Shown here one piece after another: positions 14,262 through 56,808 of a DNA stretch of 64,000 nucleotides. Under the pieces are notes generated by a model. It saw nothing but the letters and a program-made list of their open reading frames with translations. It did not search any database and was not told where the DNA came from. The translations under genes were made by a program, and so were the position numbers. The first letter of the stretch is position 1. Each line of letters begins with the position of its first letter. The stretch comes from a candidate division WOR-3 bacterium (GTDB lineage: Bacteria > Hydrothermota > Tepidihabitantia > Tepidihabitantales > Tepidihabitantaceae), in the NCBI GenBank assembly GCA_965649295.1, contig CBFGKH010000006.1:117488-181487 (forward strand). The letters are read 5' to 3'.

Positions 14262-15176
14262 ATGAAGAGGATAGCACTAATCGGCGTAACAATGGGCGAC
14301 CCAGCCGGCATCGGGCCTGAGATTCTGCTCAAGGCACTGGCCGCAATGCCCAGGTTCAGGCCGGTCATCTTCGGCTCGCGCGCGGTGCTAGAGAAGGAGC
14401 AGCGCCGACTTGGCACGAGCGTTGACCTGTCACTCGTCCAAGACTGCGCACCCCGACTTGGCCGCTACCAGCTAGGCCGACCACAGAAGAACTGTGGCGA
14501 AGCAGCGTTCGCTTGCCTCGAAGCCGGCGTTACCGCGCTCCGGCAACGCACGATAGCTGCGCTGGTCACTGCCCCAGTATCAAAAGAAGCTCTGCGCCTG
14601 GCCGGGTTTCGCTGGCCAGGCCAGACCGAGTTCCTTGCTGACCGGCTTGGTGCGCGCCACACCGCGATGCTGGCTTGGACCCCGCGGTTCAAGGCGGTCT
14701 TTGTCACAATTCATTTGCCCCTGACCCAGGTCAGCCGTCATCTCACCACCGACGCCGTTGCCGAGAAAGCCCGCCTCCTTCACGAGTTTCTCCAAGCCGA
14801 ACTCGGTCGCAAGCCGCGCATCTGCTGCCTTGCGTTCAATCCCCACGGCTACGAGTTCACCCGGGGCGAAGAGAAGCGAATTGCCGCTGGCGTGAACCTA
14901 GCGCGCCAGGCCGGCATTGATGCTGTTGGCCCGATTCCAGCCGATGCTGCGATCGCCTCCCTTGCCTACGATGGTTTTGTCGCCATGTACCACGAGCAGG
15001 CGATGATTCCGGCCAAGCTGCTGGCCCATGGTCAGGGTGTCAATGTAACACTCGGGCTTGGCCGTATCCGCACTTCGCCCCTGCACGGCACTGCCTTTGA
15101 CATCGCTGGACAAGGCATTGCCAGCCCCAGCTCAATGCTGGCAGCTATTCGCCTGGCCCGGCGCCTCGCTCGCTAG
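14262..15176 (+). CDS. pdxA: 4-hydroxythreonine-4-phosphate dehydrogenase family
   Basis: ITMGDPAGIGPE-like start, TAPVSKE, IHLPL, AMYHEQ, RTSPLHGTAFDIAG. Confidence 0.88.
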   Translation: MKRIALIGVTMGDPAGIGPEILLKALAAMPRFRPVIFGSRAVLEKEQRRLGTSVDLSLVQDCAPRLGRYQLGRPQKNCGEAAFACLEAGVTALRQRTIAALVTAPVSKEALRLAGFRWPGQTEFLADRLGARHTAMLAWTPRFKAVFVTIHLPLTQVSRHLTTDAVAEKARLLHEFLQAELGRKPRICCLAFNPHGYEFTRGEEKRIAAGVNLARQAGIDAVGPIPADAAIASLAYDGFVAMYHEQAMIPAKLLAHGQGVNVTLGLGRIRTSPLHGTAFDIAGQGIASPSSMLAAIRLARRLAR

Positions 15177-15204
15177 TTCAGAAAATACAACCTAGGAAAA
15201 CCGG

Positions 15205-15340
15205 CCGGCAAAGAGGCGGGCGACGGCGTGGGGTCAGGCGGGTGGGATGATGTTGGTCCAGCGAGATGGGCCTCACCAGACCCTGTGGAGGTTGAGATGC
15301 TCTGCCGCCTGAGGCCGCCGCCCTGCCTCACCAATCGCAA
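15205..15340 (-). ncRNA. Candidate 6S-like rod-shaped RNA (long closing stem, open central bubble, apical hairpin)
   Basis: On the minus strand gaggc/gcctc, gggcggcggc/gccgtcgccc and tcaggcgg/ccgcctga close a 22+13-nt A/C-rich bubble, followed by ggtctggtgag/ctcgctggacc. Non-Watson-Crick pairs are G-U only on this strand. TTGACA at 15367-15372 upstream. Confidence 0.45.
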
Positions 15341-15409
15341 CTTATATTTAGTCTGGAACAAGCCGCTGTCAAGTATTATTGCAACTGGCCAGAAATTCGC
15401 TGGTTAGGT

Positions 15410-16579
15410 CTAGTGGTGGAACAGCCTTAGCCCGGTGAAGACCATCACCATGCCATATTCGTCAGCAGCACGGATAATCCCATCGTCACGGGTCGAACCG
15501 CCGGTCTGAATGATGTAGCGCACTCCGGTGCGCGCGGCCCGGTCAATATTGTCGCGGAACGGAATGAAAGCGTCTGAGCCAAGGCAGATGCTGTCAAACC
15601 GACTGAGCCATTCATCCTTTTCCTGCCGCGACAGCCGTTCCGGTACCGCGCTGAAGTTGAGCTTCCAGGCAGCAAGCTCGGCCTCGGTCACATCCTCTTC
15701 GAGATAGAGGTCAATAGCCGTTGCCTTCTCTGACCGACTAACCCCGCGCTTGAACGGCAGGCCCCGCACCTTTGGGTGCAAGCGCAGTAGCCACTTCTCG
15801 GCTTTCTGGCAGGCCAGGCGCGTGCAGTGAATCCGCGACTGCTGGCCGGCACCGACGCCGATCACCTGTCCGTCCCAGACCAAGCAGATTGAGTTCGACT
15901 GCGTGTACTTCAGCACCAGTTCGGCAATCAGTAGGTCGGTGGCCACCGCCGCCGGAATCTGCTTCTTGACCGTAACGACCTTGTCAAGGAGGGCCGCACT
16001 GATGACCGCGCTGTTGCGGGCCTGCTCGAGGGTGATGCCGAACACGGTCCGCTGCTCCAGTTCCGGTGGCACAAAGTTTGGGTCAATCAACAGAATCGGA
16101 AACCGACCCGACTTCTTCTTGCGCAGCAGTTCGAGCGCGGCCGGCTCATAACCGGGCGCGATACAGCCGTCCGAAACCTCCCGGTCGAGAATCGCCGCTG
16201 TCGGTTCATCAACCGGTTCTGAGAATGCGGCCCAGTCACCAAACGACGACATCCGGTCAGCACCGCGGGCCCGCACGTAGGCGGTTGCCAACGGCGAAAG
16301 CTCGGCCTTGCCGACAAAGAGCGACTCGGCCAGCTCTGGTGATAGCGGCCGGGCAATCGCCGCGCCAGCCGGGCTCGTATGCTTGAACGAAGCTGCTGCT
16401 GGCTGGCCGGTTAGCTGGCCCAGCTCCCGCACTAACTGCCACGAGTTCAACGCATCAAGCAGATTGATGTAGCTGGGTGCGCCGTTGAGGACTCGTAGCG
16501 GCAGGGTGCCTTCGGTCACAAATGCCCGCGCCGGCACCTGGTGCGGGTTGATCCCATAACGGAGTTTCAGTTCATCCAT
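15410..16579 (-). CDS. purH: AICAR transformylase, stand-alone (lacks the IMP cyclohydrolase domain)
   Basis: Begins directly at ELKLRYGINPHQ; SFKHTSPAG, KYTQSNS, GAGQQSRIHC, SDAFIPFRDN, GLRLFHH; 389 aa. Confidence 0.88.
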   Translation of the reverse strand: MDELKLRYGINPHQVPARAFVTEGTLPLRVLNGAPSYINLLDALNSWQLVRELGQLTGQPAAASFKHTSPAGAAIARPLSPELAESLFVGKAELSPLATAYVRARGADRMSSFGDWAAFSEPVDEPTAAILDREVSDGCIAPGYEPAALELLRKKKSGRFPILLIDPNFVPPELEQRTVFGITLEQARNSAVISAALLDKVVTVKKQIPAAVATDLLIAELVLKYTQSNSICLVWDGQVIGVGAGQQSRIHCTRLACQKAEKWLLRLHPKVRGLPFKRGVSRSEKATAIDLYLEEDVTEAELAAWKLNFSAVPERLSRQEKDEWLSRFDSICLGSDAFIPFRDNIDRAARTGVRYIIQTGGSTRDDGIIRAADEYGMVMVFTGLRLFHH

Positions 16580-32584: not shown

Positions 32585-32701
32585 GGTTGCGACGCTAGAT
32601 TATGGCCAAAGACCGTTCCGAGTGACCATGAAAGAGTTGCTCTCCTGGGCTTCTGCCCAGGAGGGTTGCGACGCTAGATTATGGCCAAAGACCGTTCCGA
32701 G
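32585..32701 (+). repeat. Perfect 38-bp direct repeat flanking a 41-bp hairpin-containing spacer
   Basis: ggttgcgacgctagattatggccaaagaccgttccgag at 32585-32622 and 32664-32701; spacer contains ctcctgggc-ttct-gcccaggag. Confidence 0.9.
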
Positions 32702-32708
32702 AGGCACT

Positions 32709-33194
32709 GTGAATACCAAAGAGCGTCTGGTCCGACTTGCCGCGATTGCGGTGCTGACCGCCATCTTCCTCGGTGCCTGTGCGCCGGGCAATGCCCGCTG
32801 GTCAACCGAAACCGGCCGCCCGGCCAACTTCTGGGCCGGTCTCTGGCACGGCCTGATAGTCGTTGTCACCTTCATCGTCAGCCTCTTCACCAAGGAAGTG
32901 AAGATCTACGAGACGAACAATGTCGGCTGGGCCTACAACCTCGGTTTTCTCCTCGGCGCAATGGTCTCCTTGGGCGGCGGTGCCCGCTCGGCCTGCCACC
33001 GGCGACGGCGCGAACCGGACTGGGAGCGCATTGGCGAAAAGATCGCCGGCGCGGTTCGGGCTCAGGTCCTGCGCGACGAGTTCAAGCCCAAGGCCAGTCC
33101 TGACCAGCGCTCCGGCGCTGACGACTGGGACGAGTTCAGCCGCCGCATTGAGGACTGCATCCGCACCGAGTTCAAAAAGAAGTGGGATGACTAG
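32709..33194 (+). CDS. Conserved hypothetical membrane lipoprotein
   Basis: GTG after GAGG; lipobox FLGAC; FWAGLWHG..IYE.NN.GW.Y.LGFLLG. Confidence 0.7.
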   Translation: MNTKERLVRLAAIAVLTAIFLGACAPGNARWSTETGRPANFWAGLWHGLIVVVTFIVSLFTKEVKIYETNNVGWAYNLGFLLGAMVSLGGGARSACHRRRREPDWERIGEKIAGAVRAQVLRDEFKPKASPDQRSGADDWDEFSRRIEDCIRTEFKKKWDD

Positions 33195-33195
33195 C

Positions 33196-34437
33196 ATGGC
33201 TGGCAGCAAGTTTCGCCGTCGGCGGTCATTCTGCTCCCCGTGGTCAGCCCTCTGGACTATCGCCGCTGCTTTCGGCCTGCTGTTCGCCCCGGCTCGCGCT
33301 GCCCGCTTTCTTGGCGAGCAGTCCTACACCCTGCCCGCCAATGAGACCCGCATCGGCGACTTCTACTTTGGCGGCACGATGCTCCGCATCGAGGGCCGCC
33401 TTGACGGCTCCTGTCTAGCCGCTGCCCAGTCTATCACCATCGCTGGCCCGGTCTCCCGCAACCTCTTCCTCGCTGCCCAGACAGTTGACGTCTCCGGTGC
33501 TGCCGGCGGCGATGTTGCCTGTCTGGCAGCGACAGTCAACTTCACTGGCCGCACTCCCGCTGCCTTGCGCGTCGGCGCCGGTTCGGTCTATGTTGACGGC
33601 GCTGTTGGCCAGGACCTGCTGGCGGGTTGCGGCAATCTGACAATCGCCAAAAACTCCGAAATCAAGGGCGACCTTTTGGCAGGCTGTCGGTCACTGGAGA
33701 TCGCCGGCACAATCCGCGGCGACGTCCGCGCCGTGGCCAGAGAGATCACCATCGCCGGCACAATTGACGGCGACGTCGAGGTGACGGTCGCTGACCGGCT
33801 GACTCTGGGGCCAGACGCCCGGGTTTACGGCAACCTGCGCTACCGTTCGAGCAAGAAGCTCGACCTCGGCAACCCCGACCTCGTGTTCGGCAATATCGAA
33901 CACATCCGGCTCGAATCGCCCCGTGACGTCGATGACATCCGCAGCCTGCGGCCGCGGCCGAGCATGTTTGTCACCTTCCTGCTGCCGCTCACCCTCTTCT
34001 CAATTCTCGGCGCCTTGGTCGTTGGCTTTCTGCTCATCGCCATCTGGCAGCACGTCATCGCCCAAGCGCTCGAACGCTCAATAAACCACTGGGTGCGCAC
34101 GTTCGGCTTTGGCCTCATCGGCTTTCTGATTGGGCCAATGAGCATCATTATCGGCCTTGCCCTGATTATCACCATTCCGGCCGCACTGATTGCCGGTGTC
34201 GCCTATCTTGTCTTTCTCTATGTCGGCAAGGTACTGGCCGGCATGTTCCTCGGCAAGCTCCTCTTTCGCATCTTTGGCGCACCCGATGTCTCGCTCTGGG
34301 CCGCCGCGCCGCTGGGCATCGTGATTGTCTGGGCCCTCTGCGCCATCCCTTACGTCGGCATGGTCATCTGGCTCGCAGCCATCGCCTTGGGCTTCGGTGT
34401 CATCGCCGAACTTATCGGCATGTCCCGCCAGCCCTGA
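33196..34437 (+). CDS. Bactofilin-like (polymer-forming) beta-helix repeats plus multi-pass membrane C-terminal domain
   Basis: Repeats I.G.V.GD(L/V)..AA..V.I.G; hydrophobic C-terminal half; ATG 33196 directly after the upstream stop. Confidence 0.75.
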   Translation: MAGSKFRRRRSFCSPWSALWTIAAAFGLLFAPARAARFLGEQSYTLPANETRIGDFYFGGTMLRIEGRLDGSCLAAAQSITIAGPVSRNLFLAAQTVDVSGAAGGDVACLAATVNFTGRTPAALRVGAGSVYVDGAVGQDLLAGCGNLTIAKNSEIKGDLLAGCRSLEIAGTIRGDVRAVAREITIAGTIDGDVEVTVADRLTLGPDARVYGNLRYRSSKKLDLGNPDLVFGNIEHIRLESPRDVDDIRSLRPRPSMFVTFLLPLTLFSILGALVVGFLLIAIWQHVIAQALERSINHWVRTFGFGLIGFLIGPMSIIIGLALIITIPAALIAGVAYLVFLYVGKVLAGMFLGKLLFRIFGAPDVSLWAAAPLGIVIVWALCAIPYVGMVIWLAAIALGFGVIAELIGMSRQP

Positions 34438-34566
34438 GTCCAAGATTTCTCTTGCGTTAGCAGCTCCACTCTCCTTGCCCGCACCCTCCTGTCGTCCCAA
34501 GATGGTGGTTGCTGCGGTGGTGGTGGCGACGGCGATGGTTCCCACTCTCCTTGACCGTACGTTCCT

Positions 34567-34603
34567 GTCATTCCGAGACCGCGCAGCGGTCGAGGAATCG
34601 CCG
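34567..34603. repeat. REP/dRS3-like palindrome, copy 2
   Basis: gtcattccgagaccgcgcagcggtcgaggaatcgccg; same termini as 16612-16648. Confidence 0.65.
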
Positions 34604-34630
34604 GTCCTAGCCTGAGCAAAGCCAGGCCAC

Positions 34631-34960
34631 GAGACTAGCCGGTATCGGCTGAAGCCTATCCTGCCAGCCTGTTGCGAAGAAATCGGCCAGGACTCTCGAT
34701 GGCAGCCTCTCTAGGACAGCTACCGGGAGCTGCGCTGGCCTCTCTGCTAGGCCTCGCGCAAACTCAGCCCGAAGCTCTGCCGCCGGCATTCCCGGAAACC
34801 GGTCTAGTGGCACCATCGTCAGCAGCAGCGGCAACTGGACCAAGAAGCGAGACACTGACCGCCTCGCTGAGGTGCTCGACAGGAGCTGGGGAGACCATTC
34901 CGGGGACAGTAGAGTGGGAGTGGGTCGTATCGAGTCTAGCCGATTGACTGCTCAGAAGTT
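34631..34960 (-). repeat. Degenerate 12-nt-periodic intergenic array, copy B
   Basis: Parsed as 12-mers from 34631 on the plus strand, 23 of 24 units end in two purines; head matches copy A in reverse complement. Confidence 0.75.
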
Positions 34961-35147
34961 AGGCCTCGCGACCGCCGGCAACAGCCGACACCACCGATTC
35001 TCTCTGCTCCGTTTGGCCATTCAGGCAGCATAACAATAATAGGGCCGCGCTCGGGCCACTACCCGCTCGCCGCCGAAATCCAGGCCAACCTCGCTATATC
35101 GCTCAGGCCCAGGCCGGTTCCGGCTCCCAGCCGATTGCCGGCACCGC

Positions 35148-35768
35148 CTAGCCCTTGGCCTGACCGAGCCGACCGAAGTAGGCTGCTTTCTCAATCGCCC
35201 GAGCGATGTCAACCTGCTCAACATGAACACCGGGCCGAACCCGCAAGAACACCGGCGCAAAGTTGACGATCGCCCGGACCGAAACCGCTGTCAGGGCATC
35301 GGCCACTGCCTGAGCCCGCTCGGGCGGCACCGCAATCACCCCCAGCCCTGGCCCGAGCTCGACCGCCCGACTCGGCAACTGGGCTACATCCCAGCACGGG
35401 CAACCGGCAAAAGTTCGGCCAATCTTGGCTGGGTCAATGTCAAAGGCAGCGACAAAGTGAATCTGCGTTTGCGGCCCGCCGAAATGCTCAAGCAGGGCCC
35501 GGCCGATGTTGCCGACACCGACGAGCACTGCCGGCACGCCCGCCGGCGCATCGAGAATCCTGGCAAAATTGTCAAGCAGGTAGCTCGTCCGGTAGCCACT
35601 GCCCGGACTTCCCTTGATGCCGGCCACCATCAGGTCGCGCCGCACCTGGGCTGGCGACACTCGGGCCAGGGCCGCGAGCTGGTGCGAAAAAACATAGGCC
35701 GGCCGAAAATCACCGAGCACCCGGCGATAGAGGATCAGCCGCTCAACTGTCCGGCTGGGAATAGTCAT
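35148..35768 (-). CDS. rex: Redox-sensing transcriptional repressor Rex
   Basis: IP..TVERL.LY.R.L, QVRRDL, G..G.GY, Rossmann GVGNIG, FDIDPAKIG, IVNFAP. Alternative start GTG 35777. Confidence 0.88.
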   Translation of the reverse strand: MTIPSRTVERLILYRRVLGDFRPAYVFSHQLAALARVSPAQVRRDLMVAGIKGSPGSGYRTSYLLDNFARILDAPAGVPAVLVGVGNIGRALLEHFGGPQTQIHFVAAFDIDPAKIGRTFAGCPCWDVAQLPSRAVELGPGLGVIAVPPERAQAVADALTAVSVRAIVNFAPVFLRVRPGVHVEQVDIARAIEKAAYFGRLGQAKG

Positions 35769-45429: not shown

Positions 45430-48400
45430 GTGATGATGCGACAGATGTCCTTGCTGACTGCCATTATCCTTGTGGGCCTGGCAGCAGCCCAGACAGGTGT
45501 TGACCTTAGCCAGGCCGGCTATCTCCCCGCTGGCACCGAAATAGTCGAACTCCGTACTGCTGACGCCCGCCACTACAGTAATGGCGACGGCACAATAACC
45601 GCCGTCATCGAGGCGCTCAATCCCGGCGGCCCGAACCCGCAGCCTTTCGATGTCACCACGCTCAGCTCCGGCTATACCTGTTTCATCGAGAAGATGACGG
45701 TTCTTTGGATAACCTATTACTCCCGCACGACCGGTGATTTCCACGTCGGCTACTATACTGAAAGCGGCGGCACCATTCAGGAACGGGGCATGGCTGAATG
45801 GCAGCTTGGCTCGATCCCGGACAATGCCACTGTCAGCTCGGTTTCGTGCTCAACACGCTGCTTCAACTCCGGTTACAACTGGCCGACATCAGTGCCGCTG
45901 TATGAGATGACGAACCGCCCATCAACGACCCCAAATGACAACCCTGGCAACACGACGTTGTTCAATGATGCCGGTGACGGCGTGCAATATGCGACCTACA
46001 CTGGGTTTGCTAACGACATCTGGCTACACGCAACCCTGAACGGCGCTGCCCCGCTTGTCCAGTCCCGCCTCACCGGAGGTGACTGGTTCGCCCTCGGCTA
46101 CTCCTACACCGGCTCTGGTTCGGCCTACGAGGCCGGTTTCTACGGTGCTTGGGGAAACTATGCGCCCAAGCTCCGAGTCACCTACACCGTTCCGGCCACT
46201 CATGATGTCGGCGTGACCCAGATTCTTGCCCCAACCGGCACAGTTGATTCTGGTGCTCAGGTCACGCCCTCCTGTATCGTCCAGAACTACACAAGCAGCT
46301 CCGCGAGCTACATTGTGCGGCTCAAGGTCGGTCCCAATGGCAGCTACTACAACGGTACCGCCTCGGTTACTAACCATCCGGGCAACTCAAGCCTCACAGT
46401 AACCGGCTTCTCGCCACCAATGTATGCCAACTGGCCGCGCAACACTGCCATCGCTGTCACCTGCTCAACCGAGCTTACCGGCGACGCCAACAACAATAAC
46501 GACAAAGCTACTACCAGCGTCCAGACTCGTGTCCGTGATGTCCAGCCGACAATCTGGTACCAACCTCCCACAAACGTTGACTCCGGTGTAACCGTCACGC
46601 CGTCGGTGCGTGTCCAAAACAACGGCACAGTGCTGGCAACTTTCAATGTCCGGTTCTGGACAAGCGACGGCTTCTCCAGTACCAAGACCGTGACCAATCT
46701 CTCGGCCAATGGCGGCCAGGACATTGTTGACTTTGACCCCTGGACAATCACCACCCGCGGCACAGTCGCCTGCACCTGCGCCACCCTGCTCAGCGACGAT
46801 ATGATTCGGGCCAACGACAGCATCAGCCGCAACGTGAGCGTTGCCGTGCGTGACGTCCGGGCAGTGGCAATCACCGCACCGGTCGCAGTTGACTCGGGTG
46901 TGCCGGTAACGCCCGAGGCAACGGTCCAGAACCTGGGCACGGCAGCAGCAACCTTCCCAGTGCGCCTGTTCGTGGATGGCGTGCCGCACGGCAGCGACAA
47001 GTGGGTGAACAATCTCGCGCCCGGCCTGCCGCCAGTGGCCGTGACTTTTGACGAATGGACTCCGAACCGTCACGGCAGCTTTGTCCTGCGCTGCTCGACT
47101 ATGCTCGCCAACGATATGGTCCCAATCAATGACACAGTCTCGCGCACCGTGTCGGCAATGGTGCGGGACGTGCGGCCAATGCGCATCAACGTGCCGGCAG
47201 CCGAAATTGACTCTGGCCCGCCGCTGCTACCGAATGTGACGGTTGAGAACGTCGGCCCCAACCCATCCGGCCCGTTTGATGTCAGACTGACCATCGGCGC
47301 GTGGTCCGACCTCTATCACCTCGACAACCTTGCGCCCGGCGAGACTGCCCGTATCGGATTCCACTCCTGGCAGCCGCAGCGCGGGACTTGGCCGATTGAG
47401 CTTGTCACTCTCCTTGCTGGCGACGCCAACCCCGGCAATGACACGATTCGTTCCTCGGTCACGGTAGCTGTCCGCGACATCGGCGTCGGCTCAATACTGG
47501 CACCGGCTGGCAACGTCCGTCGCGGCACAGTCATAACTCCCCGCATTGCCATTACAAACTACGGCAACCAGCCAGCCCTGGCCAACGCCGAACTGGTGAT
47601 CAAGGACGAGTTTGGGACGGTCCTGCATACCGCCCAGGCGCGAGATGTCGCGGTCCCGGTTGCCGGTCTGGATAACCTGCCGCTTGAACCCGACTGGCCA
47701 GCGACCAATCTTGGCCGATTCCAGGCTGTCGCCAGAACCGTCTATGGCGATGACATGCATCCCGAGAACGATACCGACAGCACCTACTTCGACGTTGTTG
47801 CCGGCAGCACTGACATTGGTGTCCAGCGAATTTGGTCGCCAGCCGGAACGATTGACACTGGTACCACCGTTGTGCCAACCGTCTGGATTTACAATCCTGG
47901 CGAGCTGACTGCTGATGGCGACGCATTCTTCACCATAACCCACGCCAGCGAAACTGTATATTCAGCCACCGCCGCGATTGTCGGGCTCGCGCCGGGTGAA
48001 TCAACCGAAATCAGCTTTGACGGCTGGCCCGGCCCCCACCCTGTCGGCAGCTACGTTGGTCGCTGCTCAGTGGCGCTCGCCGGTGACGAGAATCCTGCCA
48101 ACGACACCCTGAGCCGGCCGTTTACCGTTGTTGCTCGCACCAACTGGCCGAGTGGCTGGCAGGAGGTGAGTAACCTGCCGGCTCCACCCTCCAACCGGCA
48201 GGTCAAGGACGGTGGCTGGATTGCAGGCCCGGCTGCCAATGGCCTGCTCTACGCAATCAAGGGCAATAAGGTGCGTGACTTCTATGCCTACGACCCGATT
48301 GCCGATAGCTGGACCCGCAAGGCCGATTTCGGTTCTTCCAGCAGCCGGCTGCCCGGCAAGGGCGGTGCGGCGATTGCTGACGGTGGCCGCTACATCTATG

Positions 48401-49371
48401 CGGTCAAGGGCAACAACAGCCTTGAGTTCTACCGCTACGACGTGACCACTGATAGCTGGCAGGCATTGCGCGAGGTCCCGCCCGGCAACCACAAGATCAA
48501 GGCTGGCGCCGACCTCGCCTATGTGAACTACGGTGACACCGGCTATGTCTATCTCCTCAAAGGCTACCGCAACGAGTTCTACCGCTACAACACCGTAAGC
48601 GGCGAGTGGCAGACCGAAACCCGGGCTCCGGACCGGGCCAGCCCTAAGTACGACAAAGGTTCATTCCTTGTCGGCGACGGCACCGGTGTGCTCTATGTCC
48701 ATCAGGCCAAGTTCCACCGGCTCTACCGTTACGACGTCGCCACCCGCGCCTGGAGTGCCGATACCTTGCGGGGCATGCCGTTCGTCTCCCGTGTCTTCAA
48801 CCGCACCCGCCAGTCCAAAGACGGCGGCTGCGCCGCCTGGTCCAACGGCATCATCTATGCGCTCAAGGGCAACAACACCCAGGAGTACTACCGCTACTTC
48901 CCAGCCCATGACTCCTGGCAGGAACTTGACACAATGCCGCAATGGGGCCGGCTCACCCAACGCAAGCGGAAGGTCAAGTCCGGTGCCGATATCACCAGCT
49001 ACGAGCCAGGCGTTATCTTTGCCCTCAAGGGCAACAAGACCAACGAATGCTGGCGCTGGAAAGACTGGCCAACCGCCTACTCGCTATCGCCCCAGCGCGA
49101 CGGCATTGCCACCAGCTATTTGGCTGGCGACTATCAGTTGACGATTACCCCCAATCCGCTGCGCACTGGCTTCCTCTGCCTGACCACCGGCCCGCTCTAT
49201 GACCGTGCTACGCTCTCTGTCTTCGATCCGCTTGGTCGCCGCGTCCTCACTCGGCCGCTTACACGCTCGTCCGCTCAACTCGACCTGCGTTCCCTGCCGA
49301 GCGGTGTCTATCTCCTCCGCATCGATCTCGGCAGCAGCCGGTTCACCCGCAAACTGGTAATCGAGCACTAA
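45430..49371 (+). CDS. Large secreted multidomain protein: DNRLRE-like domain, six CARDB-like Ig repeats, Kelch-like propeller, T9SS-like C-terminal domain
   Basis: Signal peptide; repeats beginning HDVG/RDV/RDIG/TDIG..P; YAIKGN..FY.YD...W repeats; PNP..FDPLGRRV..LPSGVYLLR. Confidence 0.85.
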   Translation: MMMRQMSLLTAIILVGLAAAQTGVDLSQAGYLPAGTEIVELRTADARHYSNGDGTITAVIEALNPGGPNPQPFDVTTLSSGYTCFIEKMTVLWITYYSRTTGDFHVGYYTESGGTIQERGMAEWQLGSIPDNATVSSVSCSTRCFNSGYNWPTSVPLYEMTNRPSTTPNDNPGNTTLFNDAGDGVQYATYTGFANDIWLHATLNGAAPLVQSRLTGGDWFALGYSYTGSGSAYEAGFYGAWGNYAPKLRVTYTVPATHDVGVTQILAPTGTVDSGAQVTPSCIVQNYTSSSASYIVRLKVGPNGSYYNGTASVTNHPGNSSLTVTGFSPPMYANWPRNTAIAVTCSTELTGDANNNNDKATTSVQTRVRDVQPTIWYQPPTNVDSGVTVTPSVRVQNNGTVLATFNVRFWTSDGFSSTKTVTNLSANGGQDIVDFDPWTITTRGTVACTCATLLSDDMIRANDSISRNVSVAVRDVRAVAITAPVAVDSGVPVTPEATVQNLGTAAATFPVRLFVDGVPHGSDKWVNNLAPGLPPVAVTFDEWTPNRHGSFVLRCSTMLANDMVPINDTVSRTVSAMVRDVRPMRINVPAAEIDSGPPLLPNVTVENVGPNPSGPFDVRLTIGAWSDLYHLDNLAPGETARIGFHSWQPQRGTWPIELVTLLAGDANPGNDTIRSSVTVAVRDIGVGSILAPAGNVRRGTVITPRIAITNYGNQPALANAELVIKDEFGTVLHTAQARDVAVPVAGLDNLPLEPDWPATNLGRFQAVARTVYGDDMHPENDTDSTYFDVVAGSTDIGVQRIWSPAGTIDTGTTVVPTVWIYNPGELTADGDAFFTITHASETVYSATAAIVGLAPGESTEISFDGWPGPHPVGSYVGRCSVALAGDENPANDTLSRPFTVVARTNWPSGWQEVSNLPAPPSNRQVKDGGWIAGPAANGLLYAIKGNKVRDFYAYDPIADSWTRKADFGSSSSRLPGKGGAAIADGGRYIYAVKGNNSLEFYRYDVTTDSWQALREVPPGNHKIKAGADLAYVNYGDTGYVYLLKGYRNEFYRYNTVSGEWQTETRAPDRASPKYDKGSFLVGDGTGVLYVHQAKFHRLYRYDVATRAWSADTLRGMPFVSRVFNRTRQSKDGGCAAWSNGIIYALKGNNTQEYYRYFPAHDSWQELDTMPQWGRLTQRKRKVKSGADITSYEPGVIFALKGNKTNECWRWKDWPTAYSLSPQRDGIATSYLAGDYQLTITPNPLRTGFLCLTTGPLYDRATLSVFDPLGRRVLTRPLTRSSAQLDLRSLPSGVYLLRIDLGSSRFTRKLVIEH

Positions 49372-54201: not shown

Positions 54202-56808
54202 ATGTCCAAAGGGTTCTTAGTTGCCATCTGCGGTCTGCTCGCTGCCAGTGCCTTTGCTGGCACTGATATTGACCTATGGGGAAAACCAAGCCCCAGCCAT
54301 CCGCCGCGTTTCTCTGCCGCTGACGGAAACTGGTTTGGCGAGTTCTTGGTTGACACCGCCGTTGTCTGGGCACCAGGCCAGGGCACAATGCCAGCAGTTG
54401 CCTGGGGTGGCGGCAACTGGCTAGCGGTCTGGCACGACAATGTTCGGTCAGCAACCGGCACGGTCTATGCTGCCCGCGTCACGCCGGGGGGCGGGCTCCT
54501 TGACTCGGCGCCCATCTTCCTCGCCAATGGTGCCACCAACCCGGCAGTCGCCTTTGACGGCACCAACTTCCTCGTCGTCTGGGAAAAGGCAACCGGCACC
54601 AATCAGTACGACATCTATGGGGCCCGAATCAGCCCAACCGGCGCGGTGGTTGACACTGGCGGCGGCTTCCCGATTGTCGAGAATCCGACCAGCTCACAGT
54701 CATTTCCGGCCGTCAGTTTTGGCGGTGGTAGCTTCCTCGTTGTCTGGGAAGACGACCGCAACACGGCAACAACCGGCAGCGACATCTATGGCCGGCTGGT
54801 AACACCTGCCGGCACTGTCGGACCGGAGTTTGTCGTCGCCAACTGGCTCCGCGACCAAACCCGACCCCGCGTGGCCTACGGCGACACTATCTTCTGCGTG
54901 GCCTGGCAGGACCAGCGCACTGGCCGGCCAGCACCGTTTGCCGGCCGCGTCACCCGCTCCGGCGTCCTCCTTGACATCTACGGTATCCGGCTCACCGACA
55001 ACAACTCGCAGCAGATTGGCCCGGCAGTCGCGTTCGGCGGCGGCAACTTTCTGGTTGCCTGGGCGCGGTATGACTCGGCTGCCCAGGTGAACCGTCTTCG
55101 CGGCACCAGGGTCACACCCGCCGGCGCTGTGCTCGACTCCGCCGGCTTGGTGCTGGCGATGAGCACCACCGGTGAATGGGGCCCGGCAATTGACTTTGAC
55201 GGCACTAACTTCCTCATCGCCTGGATGAGCCGACCGATGAGCGGCTCCGATGTCTGTGCCTCACGGGTCACAGCTCAGGGCGAACTGATTGACACCGTGG
55301 CGATTGAGGTTGGCCGTGCCCCGAACGTCCAGGAGTTTCCGGCCCTGGCCTTTTCCGGCAGCAGCTATCTTGTCCTCTGGTCCGACATGCGCAGCCCGTC
55401 CTATGCGGTGGCAATCTACGGCTCGCGCGTCACAACCGGTGGCTTGCCTCTTGACTCGGCCGGCATCCGCATCTCCTGGGGCGCCAATGCCCAGGGCATT
55501 CCGGCCGCGGCATCGGACGGCACGAATTACCTGGTTGTCTGGCAGGACTATCGTTCCGACGGTGAGGACTCCGACATCTACGGCATCAGGCTTGACTCGC
55601 TCGGCCGGCAACTGGAGCCGACCGCCTTTCCGATTGTCACCCGCCGCGGCTACCAAGGCGAGGCCCAGGTCGCCTTTGACGGCACCAACTGGCTTGTCGT
55701 CTGGCAGGACAGCCGAACCGCTGGCTCAGCCATCTACGCTGCCCGGGTCTCGCGGGCCGGCACGGTGCTTGACCCTGACGGCCAAGAGCTGTTCCGAACT
55801 GCCGGCGACTATCTGCGACCAGCAGTCGCCTACAACGGCACTAACTATCTTATCGCCTGGGGTGACTACGCCACTGGCGGCCCGCCCAATATCCGCTACG
55901 GCCGGGTGCGGCCCGACCTGACCGTTCTCGACTCCGGCGGCATCCTCGTTCCCTACGACACCATCACCGTCGCCCGCTCTTATTGCAGTATCGGCTCGGA
56001 CGGCACCAACTGGCTACTATGCTGGACCGACGGTCACGACCGCAACTTCTCTGACGTCTATGCCACCCGCATCGGCCCGAACGGCACCGCGCTCGACTCG
56101 GCCGGCTTCCCGGTCAGTCAAGCCCTTTTCTACCAGTATTGCCCGGCTGTTTGCTTCGACGGCACCAACTATCTGGTCGCCTGGACCGACCGCCGCTCCC
56201 AGCAGGATACAGCTATCTATGCGGCCCGCGTCTCGCCCACTGGCACTGTTCTGGAACCCAACGGCATCCCCGTCAGCTCTGGCGCCGACTTCCTGACCCG
56301 GGCAACGAGCCTTGTCTGGAACGGCACCGAATGGGTGCTCGGCTGGGGTCGCCGGGGCCTGATTCGCGGTGCCCGATTGCAGCCCAGCGGCGCGGTTATT
56401 GACACCTTCACGATTATCCGCTGGGGTCAGGCCTACTACCCGGGCTTTGCTGCCCGCAGCCGTGGCCAGGTCTTGCTCTGCTACACTGGCTGGGCTGAGG
56501 AATACCGCGGCCGCCACATCGGCGTCGCCCGCATCTGGGGCAAGTTCGGGCCATTCCCTGGTGTTGCCGAGGAACCCTTAGCAGCCGAGCTAGCCAGCAG
56601 CATCAGGGTCCTGCCCAATCCCACCGCCGGCCCGGCCCTCATCCGCACTGCCCAAGCCCGGCGCGTCGCGGTCTACGATGCTCTTGGCCGACTGGTGCGA
56701 AGGCTCGAACTGCAACAAGGCCAGGCTCAGCTCACCGGCCTTCAACCGGGTGTCTATCTGCTGTTAGCAGAACCAGGCGCGGCCCGAGCCAAGCTGATCG
56801 TCCGCTAG
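54202..56808 (+). CDS. Secreted 14-repeat (probable double beta-propeller) protein with T9SS-like C-terminal domain
   Basis: About 14 copies of PAVAFDGTN(F/Y)LVVW.D.R..DIYG.RV...G.VLD; PNP..YDALGRLVR..PGVYLL; SD GGGAG. Confidence 0.85.
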   Translation: MSKGFLVAICGLLAASAFAGTDIDLWGKPSPSHPPRFSAADGNWFGEFLVDTAVVWAPGQGTMPAVAWGGGNWLAVWHDNVRSATGTVYAARVTPGGGLLDSAPIFLANGATNPAVAFDGTNFLVVWEKATGTNQYDIYGARISPTGAVVDTGGGFPIVENPTSSQSFPAVSFGGGSFLVVWEDDRNTATTGSDIYGRLVTPAGTVGPEFVVANWLRDQTRPRVAYGDTIFCVAWQDQRTGRPAPFAGRVTRSGVLLDIYGIRLTDNNSQQIGPAVAFGGGNFLVAWARYDSAAQVNRLRGTRVTPAGAVLDSAGLVLAMSTTGEWGPAIDFDGTNFLIAWMSRPMSGSDVCASRVTAQGELIDTVAIEVGRAPNVQEFPALAFSGSSYLVLWSDMRSPSYAVAIYGSRVTTGGLPLDSAGIRISWGANAQGIPAAASDGTNYLVVWQDYRSDGEDSDIYGIRLDSLGRQLEPTAFPIVTRRGYQGEAQVAFDGTNWLVVWQDSRTAGSAIYAARVSRAGTVLDPDGQELFRTAGDYLRPAVAYNGTNYLIAWGDYATGGPPNIRYGRVRPDLTVLDSGGILVPYDTITVARSYCSIGSDGTNWLLCWTDGHDRNFSDVYATRIGPNGTALDSAGFPVSQALFYQYCPAVCFDGTNYLVAWTDRRSQQDTAIYAARVSPTGTVLEPNGIPVSSGADFLTRATSLVWNGTEWVLGWGRRGLIRGARLQPSGAVIDTFTIIRWGQAYYPGFAARSRGQVLLCYTGWAEEYRGRHIGVARIWGKFGPFPGVAEEPLAAELASSIRVLPNPTAGPALIRTAQARRVAVYDALGRLVRRLELQQGQAQLTGLQPGVYLLLAEPGAARAKLIVR

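Follow-up and report, generated by a model that had tools for sequence, protein, structure and literature searches.

What is encoded in the 233-nt spacer (15177-15409) that separates a PurH-like gene from a convergent pdxA in the DNA of a candidate division WOR-3 bacterium, and does its product belong with 6S RNA? The window, i.e., the whole stretch of 64,000 nt that was analysed, had received a first-pass annotation which proposed here an unannotated structured minus-strand RNA, under selection as RNA and representing either a minimal 6S RNA or a new sRNA. The RNA and its selection are borne out by sequence conservation, pair-preserving substitutions, promoter geometry and metatranscriptome contigs; between the two identities offered, the new sRNA is the better reading, no Rfam family being matched. 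Very probably the spacer holds a minus-strand, stand-alone gene for a small non-coding RNA of ~130-140 nt, which has its own sigma-70-type promoter, belongs to a narrow WOR-3 subclade and is under extreme purifying selection. The RNA is absent from databases, specific to this subclade as judged from flanking loci and motif scans, and 6S-like in outline only. Taken jointly with the trans-acting base-pairing mechanism proposed below, this identity has somewhat less than an even chance of being right.

Locus and Predicted Fold

The elements of the locus are, from the upstream to the downstream gene as read along the RNA:

15410-16579, minus strand: upstream gene, PurH-like, AICAR-formyltransferase-type, 389 aa (Pfam PF01808, E 2e-56)
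15367-15372, minus strand: -35 hexamer TTGACA of the RNA's own promoter (read directly)
15344-15349, minus strand: -10-like hexamer AAATAT, 17 nt after the -35 (comparison of flanks)
15197-15338, minus strand: predicted small RNA (conserved block, fold and contigs from RNA runs; ends predicted)
15305-15329, minus strand: closing stem, 5' strand, GAGGC-A-GGGCGGCGGC-C-UCAGGCGG (fold; variation keeps pairing)
15283-15304, minus strand: 5' bubble strand, CAGAGCAUCUCAACCUCCACAG, invariant save one G deletion in the related locus L082
15255-15282, minus strand: apical hairpin of 11 bp with three G.U pairs and the loop GCCCAU (fold)
15242-15254, minus strand: 3' bubble strand, AACAUCAUCCCAC, variation confined to its first A (A, G or deleted)
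15213-15241, minus strand: closing stem, 3' strand, including an invariant 6-nt bulge CCCCAC at 15233-15228 (fold, RNAalifold)
14262-15176, plus strand: convergent downstream gene, pdxA (Pfam PF04166, E 4e-76)

Homologues of the PurH-like protein in GTDB representatives reach no more than 75% identity, and the best of them come from WOR-3 MAGs. The protein matches the AICARFT/IMPCHase model (PF01808) from profile position 77 onward and appears to be without the usual PurH N-terminal part; homologues of equal length number in the hundreds and are spread over WOR-3, Fibrobacterota, Latescibacterota, Chloroflexota, and Clostridia. On the other side, the pdxA stop lies ~20-34 nt past the RNA 3' end, a spacing kept in L082. 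The arrangement with convergent pdxA is the same as in the window in L082, L085, L087, and the P0002 contig.

All elements of the fold that had been described earlier are present on the minus strand where they had been placed, both by sequence and by folding. The closing stem pairs 15329-15305 with 15241-15213 in 23 bp (5 + 10 + 8) and is interrupted by two 1-nt bulges and the 6-nt CCCCAC bulge. It opens into a C/A-rich bubble of 22 nt (15304-15283) opposite 13 nt (15254-15242), beyond which 15282-15272 pairs with 15265-15255 in the apical hairpin. Exactly four pairs are non-Watson-Crick, one in the closing stem and three in the hairpin, and all are G.U on the minus strand. The unpaired nucleotides (n = 47) are 49% C and 9% G, and the C-rich motifs CUCCAC, UCCCAC, CCCCAC, and GCCCAU place four YCCAY-type sequences in single-stranded positions.

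The minimum free energy of the 132-nt RNA is -63.0 kcal/mol, compared with -49.5 ± 4.4 kcal/mol in dinucleotide shuffles (z -3.08; 0 of 200 as low), so the fold is more than chance. Folding was among the checks suggested with the original proposal; for the whole spacer against shuffles it gave z -3.58 for the minus strand versus z -0.26 for the plus strand, where A.C mismatches occur in the stems and shuffled sequences fold just as well. RNAalifold recovered the identical structure from the homologues.

Conservation and Selection at the RNA Level

The conserved block comprises 130 nt (15210-15339) and recurs with 91-95% identity in five or more related lineages, which are represented in hot-spring, soil, peat, freshwater, and sediment metagenomes. 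When public contigs were aligned to the window, the block limits 15210 and 15339 were the same in every lineage, and the flanks were unrelated and unalignable. Identity of the RNA is 94-95% between the window and either L081 or L082, and 91% between L081 and L082. For the window and these same two loci, purH nucleotides are 75-77% identical and purH four-fold sites 46-52% identical, the latter value indicating saturation. The 75-nt core, made up of bubble and hairpin, shows 0-2 differences among assembled loci. This is a well-supported new RNA gene, its sequence being held as tightly as that of tRNA or rRNA from hot springs to soils, and the constraint on its 47 unpaired nucleotides implies a specific, important partner.

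Changes in the helices follow the minus-strand fold. Those of the closing stem are C-G>U.G, G.U>G-C, G-C>G.U, and U-A>U.G. L082 has acquired a U in the 5' strand and a G in the 3' strand of this stem, which pair with each other, and two changes in L081 shift a 1-nt bulge of the stem by three positions. The apical helix of the X15/X23 lineage differs, in RNA sense, at 15279 (C>U), 15278 (U>C), 15277 (G>A), and 15263 (C>U), with the effects C-G>U.G, U.G>C-G, G.U>A-U, and G-C>G.U, respectively, all four of which keep minus-strand pairing. Stem substitutions thus preserve the minus-strand pairs throughout, except for the single bulge-moving change of L081. Five of them affect Watson-Crick pairs, and each of these would give an A.C mismatch on the plus strand, for which the estimated chance is ~1 in 32. 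When orthologous regions were compared for covariation, pair-preserving substitutions were present, and double-sided compensatory changes were seen at 0 of the 34 pairs. Formal covariation is therefore weak, there being no double-sided change and only five sequence types.

The element might instead be a small protein gene, or a repeat or mobile element at the DNA level. Two overlapping reading frames exist, a plus-strand ORF at 15228-15407 and a minus-strand ORF of 62 aa at 15173-15361, and the former contains an internal ATG at 15297 after a perfect GGAGG. Coding is effectively refuted by one-base indels that shift both frames, namely a G deletion (15281-15283) together with the paired insertions in L082 and an A deletion (15253/4) in L086, and the element is for this reason considered non-coding. 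Peptides read from the ATG would have 36 aa in the window, 20 in L081, and 16 in L082, with the middle part frame-shifted, and identity of the element is equal at all three codon positions. As for a repeat, the possibility which the first-pass annotation had itself raised against its proposal, the element is single-copy in the window, and no match to it was found in phages, plasmids, or viral contigs. Either origin, protein gene or mobile DNA, is hardly credible.

Distribution Among Relatives

The RNA and the purH-pdxA arrangement are present in metagenome assemblies whose PurH homologues are 81-84% identical in amino acids. L081 and L082 both carry the RNA. Three further loci, L085, L087, and L088, do not differ from L082, L086 represents a variant from a hot spring, and DNA nearly identical to the window was found in hot-spring metagenomes.

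The order purH-RNA-pdxA is confined to this close clade. Among GTDB species genomes, 80 purH loci were without an RNA homologue when searched with the spacer by BLASTN and nhmmer, and also without the purH-pdxA arrangement; L001-L026 have other genes after purH. No RNA homologue was found in the purH-flanking loci of 43 relatives, and lineages whose PurH is 59-76% identical are without the RNA. A covariance model (R1) had matches in close lineages only; a match in L033 (16 bits, E 0.6) and all matches in L089-L091 were noise. Three motif scans, exact and gapped, found no true copy in 185,579 species genomes, two motif matches (L083 and L084) being chance occurrences inside coding sequence. Motif scans of viral contigs and of the JGI metagenome collection likewise gave 0 true copies, the collection as available here being incomplete, as it missed L081, which comes from a JGI sample that holds the RNA. 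By the flanking loci and motif scans, the RNA thus appears confined to a narrow uncultured subclade of WOR-3, no copy having been found outside it.

Rfam searches at gathering-score and E-value thresholds with the window, the spacer, and the RNA alone returned only noise (miRNA and snoRNA matches at E 0.3-9), and Rfam had no match in the purH loci of 36 relatives.

Promoter and Transcription

The TTGACA reported upstream of the RNA is present at 15372-15367. Its distance from the invariant GCGAUUGG that follows it is exactly 28 nt in all three of the window, L081, and L082, despite an intervening spacer that is unalignable. At the position of the -10-like AAATAT, L081 has AATGAT and L082 AATCAT, so that the geometry TTGACA-17-AAnnAT-5-G is kept in three lineages. 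This has the signature of a sigma-70-type promoter that would start near G15338, the -10 element being deduced from the conserved geometry. A consensus scan missed the promoter because of its weak -10, in which 3 of 6 bases match TATAAT.

The RNA is predicted to begin at ~G15338 (GCGAUUGGUGAGG...) and to end somewhere from 15210, where the conserved block stops (...GCCUCUUU), to the U run at 15200-15197, which corresponds to the U-rich tail noticed earlier. The predicted transcript would accordingly measure 129-142 nt. In most lineages, UCGG..UUUU(U)CC follows the block within 5-15 nt.

Two metatranscriptomes, one from wetland and one from soil, yielded contigs of 86-120 nt at a depth of 12-28 that comprise the RNA only (15218-15326); these contigs are unstranded, and DNA carry-over in RNA libraries is possible. 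The neighbouring genes of the organisms behind them are too diverged to align to the window. In the soil contig the sequence runs into an Illumina adapter at 15218, which hints at a fragment end near the RNA 3' end.

Wetland contigs (15241-15326) are fold-back chimeras in which plus and minus copies are joined at 15241 and at 15326/15296, i.e., at helix borders. Together with the adapter fusion, these chimeras look like artefacts of reverse transcription or assembly on a very stable hairpin.

A role in cis would make the element a bidirectional terminator or a 3'-UTR stabiliser for purH and pdxA, or an antisense RNA controlling pdxA read-through. Its position suits such a role, the genes on either side being convergent and the pdxA stop 20-34 nt away, a spacing kept in L082, and its GC-rich stem is followed by a U-rich stretch. 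A terminator or antisense, however, needs no 95% identity in loops, no canonical terminator was called by scan, the plus strand has A.C mismatches and folds no better than shuffles, and the contigs from RNA runs end at the RNA borders. Conservation of the promoter geometry points to a separate unit of transcription, and a cis element is very improbable.

A small GC hairpin (GGCCGCTTGCGGC) is found in L081 and L082 between the purH stop and the RNA promoter, a region (15373-15409) that is without it in the window. The hairpin may be a purH terminator, in which case it would support separate transcription of the RNA.

Comparison with 6S RNA

The first identity proposed for the RNA, a minimal 6S-type RNA, supposes that the bubble would mimic an open promoter, the closing stem standing for downstream DNA and the hairpin for upstream DNA, and that the RNA would sequester housekeeping holoenzyme and perhaps template short product RNAs. 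The canonical 6S rod consists of a closing stem, a large bulge in the centre, and a stem at the apex (PMC8414754). Like 6S RNA (SsrS; RF00013, and 6S-Flavo RF01685), the present RNA is rod-like in outline, a closing stem and an apical stem-loop flanking a large asymmetric central bubble of about the size of an open promoter complex, the 13 nt of the 3' bubble strand equalling the open-complex bubble; its apical stem, a plain hairpin of 11 bp, has neither the internal loops nor the length of the canonical one. By the authors' own reading, the 3' bubble strand begins (C)AACAU, with A and U at the places of -11A and -7T. Each is transcribed separately and in abundance, abundance here being suggested by the strong -35 of its own and by assembly from total-RNA libraries, and binding to a conserved machine would suit the extreme conservation.

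The 6S label is nevertheless supported by none of the tests applied. Searches with the Rfam 6S models gave no hit at gathering score; stretches of 401 and 151 nt, searched with permissive filters, contained no 6S-type match at E ≤ 10, the window none at E ≤ 1, and the 151-nt stretch alone had no match at E ≤ 10 to 6S, 6S-Flavo, or other families that bind RNA polymerase. The absence of a covariance-model match has to be read with the fact, which counts for 6S, that 6S genes in divergent phyla are frequently missed by homology models (PMC2864571). A literature search found no report of 6S RNA in WOR-3, a phylum without cultured members.

The RNA is also short for a 6S RNA, as had been remarked from the start. 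Canonical 6S RNAs measure ~160-210 nt, compared with the 129-142 nt predicted here; an example of 210 nt has been described (PMC8414754). The 6S-Flavo motif, although short, sets no precedent for a short 6S RNA, since its authors regard the alignment as partial and extendable to the usual 6S length (PMC2864571, additional file 1). The apical arm, of 11 bp and devoid of internal loops, is unable to reach the position equivalent to the -35. In 6S sequences drift is usual and the shape is kept, whereas the loops here are invariant, and 6S RNA is near-universal, whereas this RNA was found in a narrow clade only and has no homologue at the locus in relatives with PurH at 59-76% identity.

Two functional marks of 6S RNA are missing as well. 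The 3' bubble strand and the stem strand that would be released are nearly G-free, which makes impossible a release hairpin of the kind that canonical 6S forms opposite the 5' bulge (PMC8414754), and neither the MFE nor the centroid structures contained an alternative hairpin in the 3' strand AACAUCAUCCCACCCGCCUGACCCCAC. The hallmark of pRNA is a GG at pRNA position 4/5 or 5/6 with an A upstream of the start (PMC8414754). At the edge of bubble and closing stem, the template 5'-UCAGGCGGCAGAG-3' (GGCGG) would give a C-rich product, ..GCCGCC.., without this hallmark, as judged from sequence only. On balance, a 6S-type function is unlikely; if the partner were RNA polymerase after all, this would be the smallest 6S-type RNA known, and the -35 arm would be dispensable.

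Proposed Pairing with Translation-Initiation Regions

The mechanism that is preferred, tentatively, is that of a trans-acting RNA occluding one or more translation-initiation regions. The RNA would act through its cytosine-rich single-stranded segments, CAGAGCAUCUCAACCUCCACAG, AACAUCAUCCCAC, the loop GCCCAU, and the bulge CCCCAC, and its most likely mode would be base-pairing with G-rich translation-initiation regions of at least one mRNA. Pairing over the Shine-Dalgarno (SD) sequence and AUG would keep ribosomes from loading. The helices would provide a rigid scaffold that resists nucleases and in which only changes that preserve pairing are tolerated.

This preference rests on the C-rich invariant loops, on a complement to SD and AUG in the bubble, on the SD usage of genes in the window, and on the precedent of 6C. 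The 22-nt 5' bubble strand is the exact complement of CUGUGGAGGUUGAGAUGCUCUG, which consists of the SD GGAGG, a 5-nt spacer, and AUG (GGAGG-UUGAG-AUG). When the 22-nt strand is shuffled, a complement of the form GGAGG-N4-9-ATG is obtained in 0.25% of cases; the pattern was noticed post hoc. Genes in the window use GGAGG/AGGAG as Shine-Dalgarno sequences. Base-pairing sRNAs are typically restricted to a lineage. In the 6C sRNA, C-rich loops are the parts that bind several mRNAs, by pairing with G-rich ribosome-binding regions (PMC6486639).

With 6C/B11 (RF01066) and RoxS/RsaE, the present RNA has in common that it is small and stands alone, that conserved, unpaired C-rich segments suited to G-rich SD regions are found, and that sequence conservation within the lineage is high; it has a promoter of its own and a discrete small transcript with predicted ends. 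It differs in that the C-rich segments are situated mainly in an internal bubble and a bulge rather than in two hairpin loops, and there is no similarity in sequence or model (no Rfam match), so that it is a functional analogue at most.

A target search through the 64-kb window and the fetched loci found the complementary motif solely as the RNA's own antisense. Moderate duplexes at the gene starts 43720 and 57860 (z about -4.8) are GC-driven and unconvincing as targets. Two further features count against base-pairing. The seed lies in an internal loop closed by strong helices, which limits duplex length and is atypical for such sRNAs, and the invariance of four elements over saturated divergence exceeds what one mRNA target usually demands. 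Recognition by a protein, or by a large conserved machine, would account for this invariance no less well. Should the RNA prove an ordinary base-pairing sRNA, it would still be a new family, with a covariance model ready for annotating such genomes.

Possible Protein Binding or Ribosome Mimicry

Recognition by protein would make the RNA a sponge or an RNP scaffold, other than 6S, in which the C-rich motifs or the likeness to the 16S rRNA 3' tail are read by an RNA-binding protein such as a KH-domain or 16S-3'-end-binding factor. Such a partner would agree with the lack of variation in the four unpaired elements, in contrast to the wobble changes seen in the helices, with the single-stranded display of four YCCAY-type motifs, and with conservation of the RNA at the level of tRNA or rRNA. 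No partner gene is linked, however, the neighbours being purH, glmS, pdxA, and ABC-2 transporter genes; the motif recurs at weak significance in loops that are 49% C; and no known sponge family is matched. CsrB/RsmZ likewise repeat a short motif at unpaired positions of a structured, abundant RNA, but the motif here is CCAC-like and not GGA, is present in only about four copies, lacks a CsrA-type context, and gave no model match. A protein sponge or scaffold is regarded as rather doubtful.

The bubble strand contains an anti-Shine-Dalgarno CCUCC, in a context (AUC..ACCUCC) like that of the 16S 3' tail, and a CAU 'anticodon' 5 nt away, so that both elements by which a 30S subunit selects its start site are shown on one strand with their natural spacing. 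The RNA might on these grounds be a general mimic of the ribosomal initiation site, a decoy trapping initiation regions or titrating factors that bind the 16S 3' tail, and as such the translational counterpart of the 6S mimicry of an open promoter. General mimicry of this kind is quite unlikely. If the partner is a translation-initiation region or the machinery of the 16S tail, a new kind of global decoy would be at hand.

On the plus strand, positions 15285-15299 read GTGGAGGTTGAGATG, an SD and start codon that open the 36-aa frame in ORF 15228-15407. This SD and ATG are probably the mirror image of the anti-SD-like loop of the RNA.

Other Repeats in the Window

An exact direct repeat of 38 nt (GGTTGCGACGCTAGATTATGGCCAAAGACCGTTCCGAG) occurs at 32585-32622 and 32664-32701, 79 nt apart, upstream of a gene starting near 33031. 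Its first copy is preceded by TTGACC, a -35-like hexamer, and the repeat seems to be a duplicated segment of promoter and leader. At 34466-34578, a 37-nt segment is present twice, with 81% identity and 76 nt apart, at the start of a gene-poor stretch of 786 nt (34437-35223). Eleven tandem copies of a ~159-nt unit (53 aa) occupy 54390-56184 within an 868-aa ORF (54202-56808), and related repeats are found at 48137-49057 within an ORF of 1312 aa; both ORFs are predicted repeat-domain surface proteins.
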